Positions 2,658-52,774 of a DNA stretch of 64,000 bases are shown here, one piece after another. The notes below the pieces were generated by a model. The model did no database searches. It was given only the letters and a program-made list of their open reading frames with translations, and had not been told where the DNA came from. The position numbers were made by a program, and so were the translations under genes. The stretch lies in IMG/VR virus record IMGVR_UViG_3300037466_003648, positions 64,001-128,000 of that record; one strand, written 5' to 3'. Each line of letters starts with the position of its first letter. Positions within the stretch are counted from its first letter, which is position 1. The DNA is from a virus (lineage: Duplodnaviria > Caudoviricetes).

Positions 2658-4184
2658 TTAGGTCCAGCTCATCTGGGTTGGGAGGTAGACCTCATCCGGC
2701 CGACGGTAGTAGTACTTGCCGCCCACCGCCGCGAAGTCGCCCTGGATCAGGACCGGCTCCGGCACCACGATGCCCGTCTCGGGCATGACGTGGAAGATCG
2801 CGAAGCCGCGGTCGCTCTTGTCGAAGCCGTCCGTGTACTCCGCGTTGCCCCGGCACGCCGAGGGCGTGATGGTCCAACTGTAGGGAGCCGGGGTACCCTT
2901 GTTGAGGACGCTGCCCGTGTAGAGCTGCTGCTTGTGGATGTGACCGCTGGTGCCCGGCATGCCGAACTTGTCGTTGCGGATGTGCATCGCCACAAAGCTG
3001 TCCCAGAACACCACCCAGTTGTTCTTGATCTCTTCCTGCTCGTCCGCCTTGTTGAAGGCGCCCAGGTCCCACTTGCAGTTGACGTTGATCTGCAGATCGC
3101 GAATGCCGAAGAAGTCCGCCCACGTCCAACCGTGGAAGTCGGCCAGCACGGACCCCGTGTAGGGGCTGGCGATCGCCATGTGCTTCTGTACGCGCCACTC
3201 GTGATTGCCCAGGTTCCAAACGATCTCGCTGTCCGGGCAGACCTCACGCGCCGCACGGAAGATCTTGTCCCGCAGGAAGAACATCGACTTCACGATCTCC
3301 GCGTTGCGCGGGTCGACCGTGTACTTGCTGAACTCGTAGCAGTCCGCCTGGTCGCCGTTGAACAGGACGACGTCGGGCTGCATGTCCCGAAGCACTTCCA
3401 GGAACACCCGGTAGACGAAGGGGTCCTGCATCCGGTCGTGGTTGTCGCTGATGTCAACGATTGTGTTGATGGCCGCCTTCGCCGCGCGGGGGTAGAGCAT
3501 CTGGATGGGCTCGATGTCCCGGCGGTAGTACTGACGGAAGTCATCGAGGCTTGCGTGCTTCGCGATCTGCTTCTCGATCATGTGCTGGCTGCGGTGCAGC
3601 TGCAGCCCCGCCTGCCGACGGAACTCCAGGAACGTACCGAAGTGACGGCTCCAGGTGGCCTCGGAGTACTTGCCCTGATGCTGGTACATCGTGCGGCTGA
3701 CGAAGGAGTACTTGTTCTCGCGCTGAACGCGGCGCAAGTCTTCCCGACAGTCGTCCGGCGTAGCATTCGGGTCGAACTTCTTGCCCTCTTCGCTCATGAG
3801 GGCCAGCTGGCGCTGCGTTGGCTTGGGTTCCTTGGGAGGCTTCTCCTCCGTCGAGGGATCCGTGGGCGGCTCCTGATCCAACTGCTGGTACACGGGTTGG
3901 CCGCCAGGAATGTCCAGCTTGGCGTAGTTACCACGCTTCGTCGCGGGCTCGCCTTCACGGGCGATCGGCTGACGGGTGCGCTCGCTTGCGGACTTGCGGT
4001 AGTCGGGATCGATGACCGCGCGCACCGCGTTGCGCTTGATACCCAGTGTATCCTGGATCTGGTTGATCGACTGACCCACCTTCCAGCGCTGGATGATCTC
4101 CACCCGTGTCGCACGGTCGAGCGCCGATCCGTTGGAGGGCTCCAGCTCCTCGTTCGAGACCGCAATGTGCCGGAACTGCAGCAT
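2658..4184 (-). CDS. calcineurin-like metallophosphoesterase with N-terminal HTH-like region
   Basis: DxH (SDNH), GDxxD (GDQAD), GNHE, GHxH (GHIH); GGAGG SD before ATG 4184. Confidence 0.8.
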   Translation of the reverse strand: MLQFRHIAVSNEELEPSNGSALDRATRVEIIQRWKVGQSINQIQDTLGIKRNAVRAVIDPDYRKSASERTRQPIAREGEPATKRGNYAKLDIPGGQPVYQQLDQEPPTDPSTEEKPPKEPKPTQRQLALMSEEGKKFDPNATPDDCREDLRRVQRENKYSFVSRTMYQHQGKYSEATWSRHFGTFLEFRRQAGLQLHRSQHMIEKQIAKHASLDDFRQYYRRDIEPIQMLYPRAAKAAINTIVDISDNHDRMQDPFVYRVFLEVLRDMQPDVVLFNGDQADCYEFSKYTVDPRNAEIVKSMFFLRDKIFRAAREVCPDSEIVWNLGNHEWRVQKHMAIASPYTGSVLADFHGWTWADFFGIRDLQINVNCKWDLGAFNKADEQEEIKNNWVVFWDSFVAMHIRNDKFGMPGTSGHIHKQQLYTGSVLNKGTPAPYSWTITPSACRGNAEYTDGFDKSDRGFAIFHVMPETGIVVPEPVLIQGDFAAVGGKYYYRRPDEVYLPTQMSWT

Positions 4185-4300
4185 GTTCAACCTCCTGGAA
4201 CCACGCCTTATCACAGGCCATGCTCCCAGGACAGATCCACCAAAAACTGCGCAAGCCTAGGTGGGTTGGGACGGTTGGGGTAGTTGGTCGGGCTGTTGCC

Positions 4301-4585
4301 CTACCTGGAGTGGAACACGCTGGCGAACACGGAGGCCAGGTGACACGCACGGCGCAGGTCCACCAACATGACCCAGCCTCCATCGAACTCGTGGAACGTG
4401 AAGGTGAACAACTCCGCTGGAGACGCAAGCTTCTCGATGACGATGTCGCGTGCTCGGTCCCAGCTCATGCTCTTGGTGATCGGGATGGCAAACACGAAGC
4501 CGTTGTCTACCGCTTCCGGTGGGTAGAGCTGGCGCACCAAGGGCTGCAACCGTGCGACCAGCTCGTCAGAGTAGGGCAACTCCAC
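4301..4585 (-). CDS. hypothetical protein
   Basis: ORF track, operon context. Confidence 0.55.
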   Translation of the reverse strand: MELPYSDELVARLQPLVRQLYPPEAVDNGFVFAIPITKSMSWDRARDIVIEKLASPAELFTFTFHEFDGGWVMLVDLRRACHLASVFASVFHSR

Positions 4586-29135: not shown

Positions 29136-29650
29136 GCACCTACCGCCACTTCTACAAGCAGGCCAAGGCGGCCAGCCCCAAGCAGTGGGCCAAGATCAAG
29201 ACCGACGTCGAGAAGTTGCTTGCGAGCCTGCCACCCAACTCGGAGAGCGCGGGTGGTACCTTCCGCCAGTGGACCTTGATGATCGGTGACGCGTCCGGTG
29301 CGGTGGGTAGCAAGCCCACCGTGACCGATGACGAGATCGCGCTGAACGGCGTCCACGGCAAGGTCGACCTCTCCCATGAGACCTTCTGGATCACCCGCAG
29401 CAAGAACACGGAGCCCGATGCCGACTACTGCAAGACGGCGCGCAAGCCCTACGACCTGGTCGTCTGCGGCATCCTGATCGTCTTGCAGCACCACGCGCCC
29501 GGCGTCTGGAAGATCTCCACCAACGGCACGCTGGAGGACTGGGACCCGGCTCGCGAGTGGGTGGAGTCGATCCTGGGCTACGCAGGCTTCGATGAGGTGC
29601 TGCACATCTGCGGGGAGGTAGAGGATGCAAGCGACAAACGCGCCTCTTGA
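29132..29650 (+). CDS. hypothetical phage protein
   Basis: AAGGAG SD; HETF...YCKTARKPYD. Confidence 0.75.
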   Translation: MSTYRHFYKQAKAASPKQWAKIKTDVEKLLASLPPNSESAGGTFRQWTLMIGDASGAVGSKPTVTDDEIALNGVHGKVDLSHETFWITRSKNTEPDADYCKTARKPYDLVVCGILIVLQHHAPGVWKISTNGTLEDWDPAREWVESILGYAGFDEVLHICGEVEDASDKRAS

Positions 29651-29674
29651 CCAGAGGCAGATCCGTGGTACGAT
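29647..29674 (+). promoter_or_regulatory. sigma70-like promoter of the DNA polymerase gene
   Basis: TTGACC 29647-29652, 16 nt, TG-n-TACGAT 29669-29674. Confidence 0.5.
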
Positions 29675-29711
29675 GGTCTCCGCCTCGCCCATAGCACCTC
29701 CAGGGATCAGC

Positions 29712-31778
29712 GTGAGTACGACCCTTCGCCAAGCTCCGACGCACCACCCCTACACGTTGGTGGAGACCGACCAGGATGCCCAGGACGTCTGCGAGTACCT
29801 GCTGACTCAAGACCTGCTGGCCCTGGACACGGAGACCCACGCCAACGGCAAGGAAGGCCCCAAAGCGCTCGACCCGAAGAAGGCGTTTACCGACCCCTTC
29901 ATCAACACGGTCCGGTTGTTACAGGTGCGCTCGCGCGATAGCGAGAGTTTCATCTTCGACCTCCGCAAGATGGGCGTCGCGGGCACCTTCGCCATTAAGA
30001 ACCTGCTGTCCCAGGAGCACATCACCTGGGTCGGCCACAACCTGAAGTTCGACTACAAGATGCTCGCCACGAGTCTGGACGTGTACCTCAAGAAGGTGTA
30101 CGACACCATGATCGCGGCCAACTGTGTCGGCTTCGCGGTGGGTGACCAGGCAGCGTTGGCGCGTGGCTACAGCTTGAAGGACGTGGTGCGGGACTACCTG
30201 GGTCACTACCTGGACAAGACTGAGCAGTCGTCCAACTGGAGCGCGCGGGAGCTGACCGAAAGCCAGTTCCAGTACGCTGCCGACGACCTGCTCTACCTGT
30301 TCGATCTCTACGACCTGCTGACCTACACGGTCCGGCACGAGTACGGGATGGAAGGGGGCGTCCAGCTGGAGATGGACGTGATGCCGGTCGTCGCCAAGAT
30401 CGAGCTGAACGGCATGGCGCTGGACCCGGTCATGTTCGAGATCGTGCAGAGGTCCGCCGCTGCGTACATGCCAGCGCTCGAAGAAGAGCTGTGCAAGTAC
30501 ATCAACTGGCCGATGATCGCCTGTCCTCCGCTGGTCAAGCTGAAGACGAAGCGTAACTTCATGCCGAAGCCGGTCAGCTTCGACGGCAAGTCCGGCTCGC
30601 CGCTCATGTCCAACTCGGTCATGCTCAAGGCGTTCCACGAAAAGGGCTTGCCGCTGGAGAACCTGCAAGGCGACTACCTGGAGGAGCTGGCGAAGTCGAG
30701 CGGCAACGAGATCCTGAAGAAGTTCGTCTTCTACCGTGACCTTGCCAAGCAACTCTCTACCAACTATCTGGACTGGGTGCATCCGGTCACGGGTCGCATC
30801 CACCCCAACCTGAACCAGATGGGCGCGTCTACCGGTCGCTTCAGCGGCAGCGATCCCAACCCCCAGAACGTCCCGACCTTGAGTGTCGAGGTTCCTCCTG
30901 ACCTGTTCGAGTTGTACAAGGAGTTCCTGCAGGAGTACATCGACGCGAAGACGGGTAAGTGTCTGGTCAACTACCGCTACTGCTTCGTGCCTGCCAAGGG
31001 TAAGAAGATGGCGTCGGCCGACTACAGCGGGCAAGAGGTCCGCATGATGGTGGCGCTGTCCAAGGACCCGGAGCTGATCCGCATTCACCTCGAACCTGCC
31101 AAGGTCGAGCGCGACGGCAAGATGGTCAAGAACATGGCCGCCGACGTTCACGCCAAGACCGCGGAGCTGATGTGGGGCAAGTCGCACGGCGTCACCTGTT
31201 GGAACGCTGACGAGCTGGTCATGCCGGGTGTGGGCAAGAAGTTCCGCGCCGTTGCCAAGGTGATCGTGTTCGGTCTGGCCTACGGCAAGACCGCGGCAGG
31301 TATGGCACTCGACTGGGGCATCTCCCAGGAGGATGCCCAGGTCATCATCGACGAGTTCTTCCGCGCGTACCCCGTGCTGAAGAAGTGGCTCGACAGCAAG
31401 GGACGCGAAGCCAACGACACCCGCATGTCGTGGTACGGTTGTCGCGAGGCGGGCATCATCCGTTGGCGCATGGTCAACTCCGCTCGCCACGCAGATCGTG
31501 GTGCTCTGGAGCGCGCGGGCAAGAACACGCCCATCCAGGGCGGCTCTGCCTTGCAGATGAAGCTGGCTCTGGTTATGCTGGACAAGGCCCTTGCCGGGAC
31601 CGGCATCTTGATGACCGGGACCGTGCACGACGAAGCGCTGTTCGAGTTCTACGAGGCGGAAGAGAAGCTGGCCGTGACCACCATCGATCGCTGCATGACC
31701 GCGGCAGGTGATGTCTTCCTGCAGCACGTCATCCCCAGTACCTGCGGTGTCGGTGTCGGCACCCACTGGTTCCACTAG
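29712..31778 (+). CDS. polA: family A DNA polymerase with 3'-5' exonuclease, no 5' nuclease domain
   Basis: ExoI DTE, ExoII HNLKFD, ExoIII YAADD; TGRFSGSDPNPQN, ADYSGQE, K...FGLAYG, VHDE. Confidence 0.95.
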   Translation: MSTTLRQAPTHHPYTLVETDQDAQDVCEYLLTQDLLALDTETHANGKEGPKALDPKKAFTDPFINTVRLLQVRSRDSESFIFDLRKMGVAGTFAIKNLLSQEHITWVGHNLKFDYKMLATSLDVYLKKVYDTMIAANCVGFAVGDQAALARGYSLKDVVRDYLGHYLDKTEQSSNWSARELTESQFQYAADDLLYLFDLYDLLTYTVRHEYGMEGGVQLEMDVMPVVAKIELNGMALDPVMFEIVQRSAAAYMPALEEELCKYINWPMIACPPLVKLKTKRNFMPKPVSFDGKSGSPLMSNSVMLKAFHEKGLPLENLQGDYLEELAKSSGNEILKKFVFYRDLAKQLSTNYLDWVHPVTGRIHPNLNQMGASTGRFSGSDPNPQNVPTLSVEVPPDLFELYKEFLQEYIDAKTGKCLVNYRYCFVPAKGKKMASADYSGQEVRMMVALSKDPELIRIHLEPAKVERDGKMVKNMAADVHAKTAELMWGKSHGVTCWNADELVMPGVGKKFRAVAKVIVFGLAYGKTAAGMALDWGISQEDAQVIIDEFFRAYPVLKKWLDSKGREANDTRMSWYGCREAGIIRWRMVNSARHADRGALERAGKNTPIQGGSALQMKLALVMLDKALAGTGILMTGTVHDEALFEFYEAEEKLAVTTIDRCMTAAGDVFLQHVIPSTCGVGVGTHWFH

Positions 31779-49482: not shown

Positions 49483-50550
49483 ATGTCCGAGCAGACCCCG
49501 GAAACCACGGATCTCACCACCCAAGGCACCACGGCGCTCAGCACCGGCGCGGAGAACGCGCTGGCTTTGCTGATGCAGGCGGAGGAGAGCCTGGAGCAAG
49601 TCTACGACCAGATGACCGCCATGTCGGAGAACAACATGGGCGGCGCGGGTGCGGGCTCGTCTGGCTACGACTTCACCGGCAAGGTGAAGGTCGAGGTCCA
49701 GCGTAACGGCACGCTGGTCTTCCAGAACCCGTTCACCGGCAAGATCGACGGCGGCAACTCGATCAGCATCGTCCCCATCTCCGTCAAGTTCCAGCTGCAG
49801 CGCTGGTTCGGCGAGAAGGAGGAGATCGAAGGCATCGACAAGGAGAAGCAGAAGGGTCCCCTCTGCCGCTCCGTCATGTTCGAGGAGCCCGTCCCGACGC
49901 GCAACGCCGAGACCGGCGAGATGGAGAACGCCATCAACGAGACCGGCTGGTTCCACCAGCCTGCGATGTCCGCCTACAACGCGCGTCGCATGCTGCCCAC
50001 GCTCACCGGCAACCACGGCTGCGACGGCAAGAGCGGCATGACCCTCTGTGCCGACTGCCCGATGGCTGTTCAGGGCTACAAGGGCAACGAGCAGGGCGGC
50101 AAGTGCGGCCCCATCGGCATGGTCGAGTGCGTCATCTTCCAGGTCAACGACGAGTTCCTGCCGCAGCCGGTCTACGCGTACGTCAAGATGTCGGTCACCT
50201 CGATCATCGAGTACGTGGAGTTCCTCAAGCAGATCAAGAAGGTGCACAAGGACCCACGCACCGGCAAGGAGCTGCAGTCGCCCGTGATGCGCCTGATCCT
50301 GAAGCTCACCTGCGAGTCGCAGACCAGCGGCGCGAAGAGCTGGGGCAAGCTGAACTACCACGCCTTCGGCGCGGTCAACCCCAGCACCGAGCAGGGCCAG
50401 AACATCACGAAGACCATGGCGACCGCCATCGAGCTGACGACGGCCAAGCTGGCCGAGATCGCCGAGAAGGACGCCAGCAAGGCCAACAACAAGGGCAACG
50501 CGGGTGGTGGCGGCACCACCCAGGTTGCCAAGGCGGGCGCGCCCTTCTAG
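49483..50550 (+). CDS. hypothetical protein, possibly ssDNA-binding or recombination mediator
   Basis: AAGGAG SD; Cys motifs; flexible tail ending GAPF. Confidence 0.7.
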   Translation: MSEQTPETTDLTTQGTTALSTGAENALALLMQAEESLEQVYDQMTAMSENNMGGAGAGSSGYDFTGKVKVEVQRNGTLVFQNPFTGKIDGGNSISIVPISVKFQLQRWFGEKEEIEGIDKEKQKGPLCRSVMFEEPVPTRNAETGEMENAINETGWFHQPAMSAYNARRMLPTLTGNHGCDGKSGMTLCADCPMAVQGYKGNEQGGKCGPIGMVECVIFQVNDEFLPQPVYAYVKMSVTSIIEYVEFLKQIKKVHKDPRTGKELQSPVMRLILKLTCESQTSGAKSWGKLNYHAFGAVNPSTEQGQNITKTMATAIELTTAKLAEIAEKDASKANNKGNAGGGGTTQVAKAGAPF

Positions 50551-50866: not shown

Positions 50867-51277
50867 ATGGGCCATTTCAAGATCGGCGTCGCGCGTCTCG
50901 ACAACGCCAGCGATCCGCACCCGGACCCTGCTCAAGGGTTCGACACCTACGTCAAGTTCATCGACGACGAGGGCAAGGAGCACAGCATCCCGGCAACCGG
51001 GGTCGACGTCCAGCTGCGCGCCGGTCGCGCGGTGAACCTCGTCGCCATCACCACCGGTGCGTTCGAGCTGGATCTGCCTGGTTGCGTGGTCGACTTGATC
51101 CGCGATCCCGACGTCAATATGGAGAACACCTTCGACGCCAACCGCCGCAGCCACGTCCTCTCCGTCACCCCGGACGACCAGTTCAAGGCGGCTATCCTCG
51201 AAGCCATCGAAGTGGAAGCTCCTGGCACGAAGGCGAAGGTCTTGAAGCGCTTGGCCGAGCTGAAGGGAGAGGTGTAG
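50867..51277 (+). CDS. hypothetical protein
   Basis: GGAGG SD. Confidence 0.7.
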   Translation: MGHFKIGVARLDNASDPHPDPAQGFDTYVKFIDDEGKEHSIPATGVDVQLRAGRAVNLVAITTGAFELDLPGCVVDLIRDPDVNMENTFDANRRSHVLSVTPDDQFKAAILEAIEVEAPGTKAKVLKRLAELKGEV

Positions 51278-51278
51278 C

Positions 51279-52196
51279 GTGGCGCCCCGTGGTAAGTTCA
51301 TCCCGCCGTCCGGCATCGTCGTCGTGTTCGACTTCGAGACCACCGGCCTCGACCCCGCCGACGGCTCCGAGCCCATCGAGATCGCGGCCATCGCGATCGA
51401 TACGCGCAAGTGCCCGGAGTACCCCGAAGTGGGTCGCTTCCCGGCGCGCGTGATGCGCGTCACCAACACCGCCAAGTTGACGGAGACCTATGATGTTCGC
51501 GTAGGCGACACCCTCGACTCCATCGCGGGTGCGCACAAGACCACCACCGCCTGCCTGCGTGAGCTGAACCAGGTCGACTGGATCGACAGCATCAACCCCG
51601 GCGACGAGATCATCGTGCCGAGCGGTGCGCTGGGCGTGAACGGCAAGACGCCCCGCCAGGTGCTGGAGGGCGAGGACCCGGTTAAGGTCTTCCAGGAGTT
51701 CATCGACTGGTGTGGCAAGGTCACCGGTGCCCGCCACGGCAGCGTCAAGTGCATGCTCGCGGGCCACAACACCCAGTTCGACGTGCGCTTCCTCAAGGCG
51801 GCGCTGAAGCAGCACCTGCCGACCTTCGACTACGAGTCGTTGTTCGACTACCACGACCTGTGCTCGCACAAGGTCTTCCACTTCCGCCACGTCATGGTCA
51901 GCAAGCGCTCGCAGTTCTCGAACCTCGTGCGTGCCACCAAGATGTACGGCATCCCACACAGCGCCCACGAGGCGATGGGCGATGTGGAAGCCACGGTCGA
52001 AGTGTTCCGTCGCATGGCGACCGAAGAGAAGCAACTGGGCAGCGTCCAGCAGCTGGCCGCGGCTCTGCCGCACGTCCTGTACGGCTCGGCCGGTGACATC
52101 GACATGGTGAAGCTGGAAGCCCTGATCAAGCAGGTCTACCCGTCGATCAACACGAGCGACGAGTCGACCTTCCCCGTCCCCGCCCTCGCCGACTAG
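51279..52196 (+). CDS. DEDDh (DnaQ-like) 3'-5' exonuclease with inserted LysM domain
   Basis: ExoI DFETTG, ExoII HNTQFD, ExoIII HEAMGD; LysM at aa ~70-114. Confidence 0.88.
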   Translation: MAPRGKFIPPSGIVVVFDFETTGLDPADGSEPIEIAAIAIDTRKCPEYPEVGRFPARVMRVTNTAKLTETYDVRVGDTLDSIAGAHKTTTACLRELNQVDWIDSINPGDEIIVPSGALGVNGKTPRQVLEGEDPVKVFQEFIDWCGKVTGARHGSVKCMLAGHNTQFDVRFLKAALKQHLPTFDYESLFDYHDLCSHKVFHFRHVMVSKRSQFSNLVRATKMYGIPHSAHEAMGDVEATVEVFRRMATEEKQLGSVQQLAAALPHVLYGSAGDIDMVKLEALIKQVYPSINTSDESTFPVPALAD

Positions 52197-52204
52197 GAGG
52201 TCTT

Positions 52205-52774
52205 ATGTCCGCACCGACCCGCGAAACCCTCATCGTCAATCTGTTCGCCGGACCCGGTGCGGGCAAGTCTACCCTCGCGGCGGGCTTGTTCTACAAGCTC
52301 AAGATGGACAAGCAGCTGCAGGTCGAGTACATCCAGGAGTACGCGAAGGACAAGACCTGGCAGTCGGAGGCGTTCACCCTCCAGTGTCAGCCGTATATCA
52401 CCGCCAAGCAGCTCTACCGGCAGCACCGCCTGTTGGGCAAGGTGGACGTGGTGATCACCGACGCACCTCTACTGCACGGCTTGATCTACCCCGGTCACTA
52501 CACCGGCCCCGACTTCGAGAAGTGGTTGGTCACCACCTTCCACAGCTTCTGGAACCAGAACATCCTGCTCGTGCGCGATGAAGACCCCGCCAACTACGAA
52601 GGTTACGGACGCTCCCAGACCTTTGACGAAGCGCGTGCCATCGACGAGCGGACCAAGGAGATCCTAGAAACGGCTGGTGTCGGTTACTGCACCGTACCTG
52701 CCCAGGGTCACGAGACCGTTGATCGTCTGGCCGACCTCGTGAACGCTGTCTACCGAGAGGCGAACAAGTCGTGA
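52205..52774 (+). CDS. P-loop NTPase (AAA_28/NadR-like)
   Basis: NLFAGPGAGKST, EYAK, ITDAPL, GRSQT. Confidence 0.78.
   Translation: MSAPTRETLIVNLFAGPGAGKSTLAAGLFYKLKMDKQLQVEYIQEYAKDKTWQSEAFTLQCQPYITAKQLYRQHRLLGKVDVVITDAPLLHGLIYPGHYTGPDFEKWLVTTFHSFWNQNILLVRDEDPANYEGYGRSQTFDEARAIDERTKEILETAGVGYCTVPAQGHETVDRLADLVNAVYREANKS

Follow-up and report, generated by a model that had tools for sequence, protein, structure and literature searches.

An uncultured soil jumbo phage of 205 kb encodes an exonuclease, here called P0001, in which a true, complete and near-consensus LysM domain is nested between the ExoI and ExoII motifs of a DEDDh core. The architecture is real, rare (two phages) and, as far as we have searched, undescribed. 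Our preferred reading, to which we would give roughly a 50% probability, is that an ordinary DEDDh exonuclease has acquired the LysM at the rim of its cleft as a lineage-specific addition that it can do without. The gene lies in a window (the whole stretch of DNA that was analysed, 64,000 nucleotides) that corresponds to bases 64001-128000 of a source record of 205,180 bp with direct terminal repeats, rated complete, and P0001 is the sole RNase_T protein as well as the sole LysM protein of this complete genome. The gene and its parts are given in Table 1.

Table 1. Position of the exonuclease gene and of its motifs and domains in the window
Feature	Position	Strand	Remarks
P0001 gene, 305-aa DEDDh exonuclease with nested LysM	51279..52196	+	GTG start, TAG stop
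ExoI motif FDFETTG (catalytic D18, E20)	51327..51347	+	invariant in alignment; in first RNase_T stretch
LysM insert, residues 69-114 (Pfam match 71-114)	51483..51620	+	Pfam, alignment, AF2, PDB search, superposition
Junction SG and helix alphaA (ALGVNGKT, residues 117-124)	51621..51650	+	profile alignment to RNase T
ExoII motif GHNTQFD (catalytic D168)	51762..51782	+	alignment; direct sequence reading
ExoIII motif HEAMGD (general base H230, D235), DEDDh subtype	51966..51983	+	alignment; direct sequence reading
C-terminal helical extension, residues 250-305 (LPHxLYG...ESTFP)	52026..52193	+	alignment, AF2

Pfam recognises RNase_T (PF00929) in P0001 with an E-value of 1.4e-18 and 68.4 bits against a gathering threshold of 24, the match falling into two stretches that are split by the insert. 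The PHROG profiles divide the protein in a similar manner, with the flanks assigned to 'DNA polymerase exonuclease subunit' (PHROG 192) and the middle to an endolysin family. All five catalytic residues, D18, E20, D168, H230 and D235, are present and invariant across the aligned relatives, in line with a first-pass annotation of this DNA which had described the DEDDh residues as intact. In the full-length AF2 model (pLDDT 86) the core has an RNase H-like alpha/beta fold, and Foldseek related the model with a probability of 1.00 to RNase T, Orn, REXO2, DinG-exo and PolC. The best structural match of the core is RNase T of E. coli and P. aeruginosa (3NH1, 3VA3, 2F96; TM 0.75 by target), which has the same DEDDh motifs. 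Since the first catalytic strand begins at residue 13, no space is left for a signal peptide, and the earlier statement that the protein has none is upheld. Taking motifs and fold together, the core should be a catalytically competent cytoplasmic 3'-5' exonuclease. Its C-terminal extension is common to four close orthologues only, more distant phage relatives being without it, and may serve as a partner-binding tail.

The insert scores 31.4 bits with the Pfam LysM model (PF01476, cut-off 20.9), and 35.1 bits when the segment is searched alone. A PDB sequence search with residues 60-120 retrieved LysM domains only, headed by T. thermophilus P60 and Ecp6 (E 3.7e-5), and in an alignment with 16 LysM repeats of bacterial proteins the insert was 40-51% identical to them and fitted the LysM consensus TYxVRxGDTLxxIAxxHxTTxAxLRxLNxLxxxDxIxPGQxLxVP. 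In the full-length AF2 model it has the topology beta-alpha-alpha-beta (strand 68-72, helix 79-85, helix 90-97, strand 110-114) at a pLDDT of 93-95; modelled alone, it superposes on the LysM structure 4uz2 with an rmsd of 0.8 Å over 47 residues at 40% identity, and a fold search with this model has almost exclusively LysM domains among its best 30 matches. The first-pass annotation had placed a LysM at residues 70-114 (nt 51486-51620) between ExoI and ExoII and had proposed AlphaFold modelling as a check; Pfam, PDB search, alignment and model all agree with that placement, and the segment does model as a LysM.

Canonical LysM or CBM50 domains (P60_tth 4UZ2/4UZ3, YkuD, MltD, AtlA, Ecp6) carry the GDTL..IA...LN...PG..hxhP signature that is also found in P0001. 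They are, however, extracytoplasmic, usually terminal and often repeated, and occur in cell-wall enzymes or receptors, whereas the domain in P0001 is single, nested and part of a cytoplasmic nuclease. Seven of the nine positions at which LysM1 of P60_tth contacts chitohexaose, mostly through the main chain, are kept or conservatively replaced in P0001 (V73, G76, T78, L79, I102, I105 and N106). This conservation, along with the near-consensus sequence, would favour the possibility that the LysM keeps a glycan function, its ligand being a molecule with GlcNAc that is within reach of a protein in the cytoplasm or released by lysis, such as peptidoglycan precursors, muropeptides or wall debris, the bound ligand tethering the nuclease or switching it allosterically. 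The same observations, namely the identity that persists with canonical bacterial LysM domains and the retained contact positions, count against regarding the domain as an add-on, as such conservation would exceed what simple foldability might demand and a real GlcNAc-type ligand could account for it.

An origin of the insert as an assembly chimera, or as a chance LysM-like stretch of a loop, can be given practically no weight. The Pfam score above the curated cut-off, the PDB sequence matches and the fold superposition argue against chance resemblance, and the identical P0001 protein was found on contigs of two JGI samples. Contigs from further soil and rhizosphere metagenome runs span both insert junctions with 0 differences, and wherever contigs of additional runs (four in all) lie on the gene they match the window sequence exactly. 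Moreover a diverged orthologue, P0002, assembled from another run, carries the insert at the identical site.

The position of the insert within the fold gives a clue to what it may affect. Orthologues without the insert read RFPARLMRV-T/E-x-P-D/E-L/N-A-x followed directly by A/P-E/R-AL-x-VNGKT, and it is at the point where these two parts meet that P0001 has residues 69-114; in the insert-less orthologues a short loop, PDLAT-AE or PENAH-PR, stands there in place of the 46-residue LysM. The family profile aligns the segment after the insert with the stretch EPF-EGANIEPAALEFTG of P. aeruginosa RNase T. The E. coli counterpart of this stretch is the helix QPEALAFNGI, which holds Gln71, Glu73 and Phe77 and to which the post-beta3 segment of P0001 aligns. 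Of these residues, Gln71 and Glu73 belong to the wall by which the E. coli enzyme stops duplex digestion, while Glu73 and Phe77 touch the 3'-terminal base (PMC3439924). According to the profile alignment the LysM ends 1-2 residues ahead of the helix equivalent to this substrate-contact segment, and it should for that reason be located at the edge of the substrate cleft, a placement that we infer from the alignment. RNase T differs from P0001 in having no inserted domain, and the equivalents of its Glu73 and Phe77 are Gly116 and Val120, the base-selecting residues of RNase T being absent from the phage enzyme. That a LysM can be plugged into this loop at all would follow from its topology, in which the first and last strands pair antiparallel and bring the ends of the domain next to each other.

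An insertion adjoining the substrate-contacting helix would have a geometry able to couple ligand binding with activity, which again would suit a retained glycan function. A more specific proposal is that the LysM acts as a ligand sensor, in which a GlcNAc-containing wall metabolite (muropeptide, UDP-GlcNAc/MurNAc, lipid II) shifts the adjoining helix and so turns the nuclease on or off in response to the condition of the host wall. We regard this sensor as a long shot; if true, it would constitute a natural domain-insertion allosteric nuclease and would define for the first time what a bacterial-type LysM does in the cytoplasm.

A nested binding domain has a parallel among DEDD-superfamily exonucleases in PARN, where a small domain, R3H, is likewise nested after the ExoI and before the ExoII residues; catalysis relies on D28/E30 ... 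D292, and W219 is part of R3H (PMC3116163). PARN is, however, eukaryotic, its R3H is a known single-strand nucleic-acid binder and not a LysM, and there is no homology to P0001 beyond the DEDD core.

The architecture was sought widely. In a collection of 5.8 billion clusters a single-sequence search gave 7 relatives and a profile search 204, of which the best 120 were examined. By precomputed annotation P0001 alone carries PF01476 among these best 120 of 204, and the insert itself is found in two proteins, P0001 and P0002, among the best ~120 of the 204 family members, 14 close ones included. P0002 is 63% identical to P0001 and syntenic with it. In an exhaustive scan over 1.84 billion representatives all exonuclease matches except P0002 align in two stretches and skip the insert, and other candidates from this set that were checked with Pfam proved to be plain RNase_T proteins. 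Four proteins with alignments over both ExoI and the LysM (P0120, P0046, P0052 and P0091) were rejected, as Pfam identified them as multi-LysM proteins without exonuclease; likewise the metagenome loci L076, L052, L080 and L044, where the tblastn range overlaps the insert, encode insert-less exonucleases. Scans of IMG/VR and of JGI metagenomes added insert-less relatives only and no further carrier, none of 50,697 GenBank phage records was matched by tblastn, and a search for longer, fused forms of the protein found none. No cluster combining RNase_T and LysM was seen among AlphaFold DB clusters and ESM Atlas clusters, and literature searches for LysM with DnaQ/exonuclease, or for LysM domain insertion in a nuclease, were empty or gave only unrelated co-mentions. 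The first-pass annotation, made without searches, had known of no such fusion, and the architecture searches bear this out: it is not common, being confined to two phages.

P0001 to P0004 are syntenic orthologues in related jumbo phages. P0003, P0004 and PHROG 192 share with P0001 the DEDDh core (50-67% identity), the C-terminal extension and the syntenic slot between a 340-367-aa unknown gene and helicase-primase genes; the insert is absent by alignment from P0003, P0004 and all more distant relatives. A maximum-likelihood tree of 14 close relatives, computed with outgroups after removal of the insert, has the order (P0004,(P0003,(P0001,P0002))) with support of 92/92 for the pair that carries the insert. 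As P0001 and P0002 are sisters on this core tree, a single gain is most likely, and one gain after the split from P0003 would be the simplest history. Site patterns in four concatenated syntenic proteins were counted as 22/20/16 and do not resolve the branching of the P0001, P0002 and P0003 phages. The insert agrees in GC and GC3 with the remainder of the gene, and its gain is accordingly not recent; a search for direct repeats flanking the insert yielded only 8-12-nt matches at chance level.

Comparison of the two carriers indicates how the insert has been maintained. P0001 and P0002 are 68.5% identical in the core and 32% identical in the insert, with dN of 0.26 and 0.78 respectively, i.e. 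an approximately threefold faster insert. Omega is 0.28 for the core and ~0.37 for the insert, thus below 1 in both, the value for the insert being rough as its dS is saturated. The P0002 copy scores 12.7-16.1 bits as LysM, under the Pfam threshold of 20.9; it keeps the hydrophobic pattern, but the Gly of GDTL and the Asn of LN are gone. P0002 also has the longer core branch on the maximum-likelihood tree (0.36 vs 0.13 for P0001). The length and frame of the insert have been preserved over a dS of ~1 or more. The insert is thus constrained more weakly than the enzyme, yet is not free. Selection just for a folded plug by the active site would look alike, so that such rates do not separate a functional domain from a tolerated one.

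Dispensability of the LysM is favoured both by the syntenic orthologues that lack it and by the drift of the P0002 copy below the Pfam threshold. These two points equally disfavour a retained glycan function, given that the orthologues manage without the domain and that the eroded copy has lost the Gly and Asn mentioned above. The missing signal peptide and the location of the gene in a replication module also speak against it, as does the single LysM in P0001, because solved LysM ligand-binding systems use several cooperating domains (PMC4356369). Weighing these points against the near-consensus sequence and the conserved contact positions, we consider a retained glycan function unlikely, if still a serious alternative.

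The replication module includes, as neighbours of P0001, genes for an SNF2 helicase, a clamp-loader-like AAA+ protein, a methyltransferase, two AAA_28 P-loop proteins, a DEAD helicase, DnaG primase, RNase HII, UvrD and ribonucleotide reductase (RNR). One nucleotide separates the TAG that ends a 136-aa gene from the GTG with which the exonuclease begins (51275-51281), and GGGAGAGG lies just 5', which makes translational coupling likely; a further gene with a good Shine-Dalgarno sequence begins 8 nt past the exonuclease stop. A homologue of the 136-aa gene (39.5% identity) is encoded by the P0003 phage, and in the P0002 phage the equivalent slot contains no gene of its size. Directly upstream of this operon pair, at 49483-50550 (+), a 355-aa protein without Pfam or PHROG match is encoded; its middle is rich in Cys, and its C-terminal tail, rich in Gly, ends in APF. 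All four related phages keep this protein at 62-68% identity, and its ESM Atlas features (0.94-0.95) lead to viral clusters, some with Pam3_Gp34 or DUF5895. The AAA_28 P-loop proteins are paralogues of 189 aa and 225 aa, at 52205-52774 (+) and at 3808-4485 of locus L001, which PHROG names 'thymidylate kinase'.

The polymerase of the phage belongs to family A (PolA; 29625-31778, + strand) and its 3'-5' exonuclease domain is intact, with the motifs DxE, NxxxD (NLKFD) and YxxxD (YAADD), while neither Pol III alpha (PF07733) nor PolB gave a match in the complete phage genome. Pol III epsilon, or DnaQ proper, has the same DEDDh fold as P0001, and JGI names relatives of P0001 'epsilon subunit-like'; however, with no Pol III alpha and with a PolA that brings its own exonuclease, P0001 is not Pol III epsilon and not the sole proofreader. 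As PolA has its own proofreading domain, a role of P0001 in DNA-end processing or nucleotide scavenging may be proposed.

The first-pass annotation had offered several new uses for the LysM: recognition of sugar-modified nucleic acid, recognition of a cytoplasmic glycan or protein, and localisation of the nuclease. On the first and most specific of these proposals the domain would recognise glycosylated nucleic acid and steer the nuclease to, or away from, modified phage DNA, and the only point for it is that the insert would adjoin the 3'-end pocket. We know of no LysM that binds glycosylated DNA. Four families were searched in the complete genome and no ThyA-type dNMP hydroxymethylase, GT1 or GT2 match was obtained, the only thymidylate synthase in the genome being of the ThyX type. 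The suggestion is therefore unsupported, and we rate it as highly improbable. The ThyX (Thy1) match itself, at L091/L092 (G000:C1:60490-61161), lies ~3 kb before the start of the window in one 319-aa frame in which profile positions 60-190 precede positions 15-57, an order that suggests a permuted or partly duplicated protein.

The replisome genes around P0001 would also fit a use of the LysM fold as a protein docking module through which the exonuclease would be brought to a partner from phage or host, for instance the replisome, SSB or the clamp. The fold search with the insert matched contractile-injection baseplate subunits and a mitoribosome assembly complex as well (7b5h, 8kea, 9gtp, 6rbk, 7pub), from which it follows that the fold has glycan-independent structural uses. 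The P0001 insert is, however, nearest to canonical glycan-binding LysM repeats and not to those of baseplates. The one neighbour difference that was compared, the downstream AAA_28 gene, does not co-vary with the insert; co-occurrence was rejected since this gene also adjoins insert-less P0003. On balance docking seems to us rather improbable.

Considering the LysM as a dispensable, lineage-specific add-on, the following course of events may be envisaged. A complete LysM would have been inserted once into the loop between beta3 and alphaA, in the common ancestor of the P0001 and P0002 phages, and would since have been under relaxed purifying selection that kept it folded, with the basic job of the enzyme independent of it. 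The exonuclease would be expressed with the replication genes and would act beside, and not instead of, the proofreading domain of PolA. In P0001, where the LysM is still near consensus, it may supply an additional surface, for tethering or gating, by the substrate entrance. As a rough apportionment of the role of the domain, we would assign 40% to a ligandless passenger or steric modifier, 25% to a contact with protein or nucleic acid, 25% to a GlcNAc-type ligand and 10% to something else.

P0001 can be seen as a lineage-specific form of a known enzyme, and the evidence leans to a LysM that is a non-essential add-on. The general importance of the architecture is modest, as only two soil phages, both uncultured, have it and it may simply be tolerated as a passenger. 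LysM is usually taken as a marker of extracytoplasmic glycan-binding proteins, and P0001 offers a clean natural case of domain insertion; the natural series of insert-less orthologue, near-consensus insert and eroded insert makes the LysM question directly testable at the bench. P0001 could in this way reveal roles of the LysM fold away from the cell wall and the remodelling of substrate access in DEDDh exonucleases.
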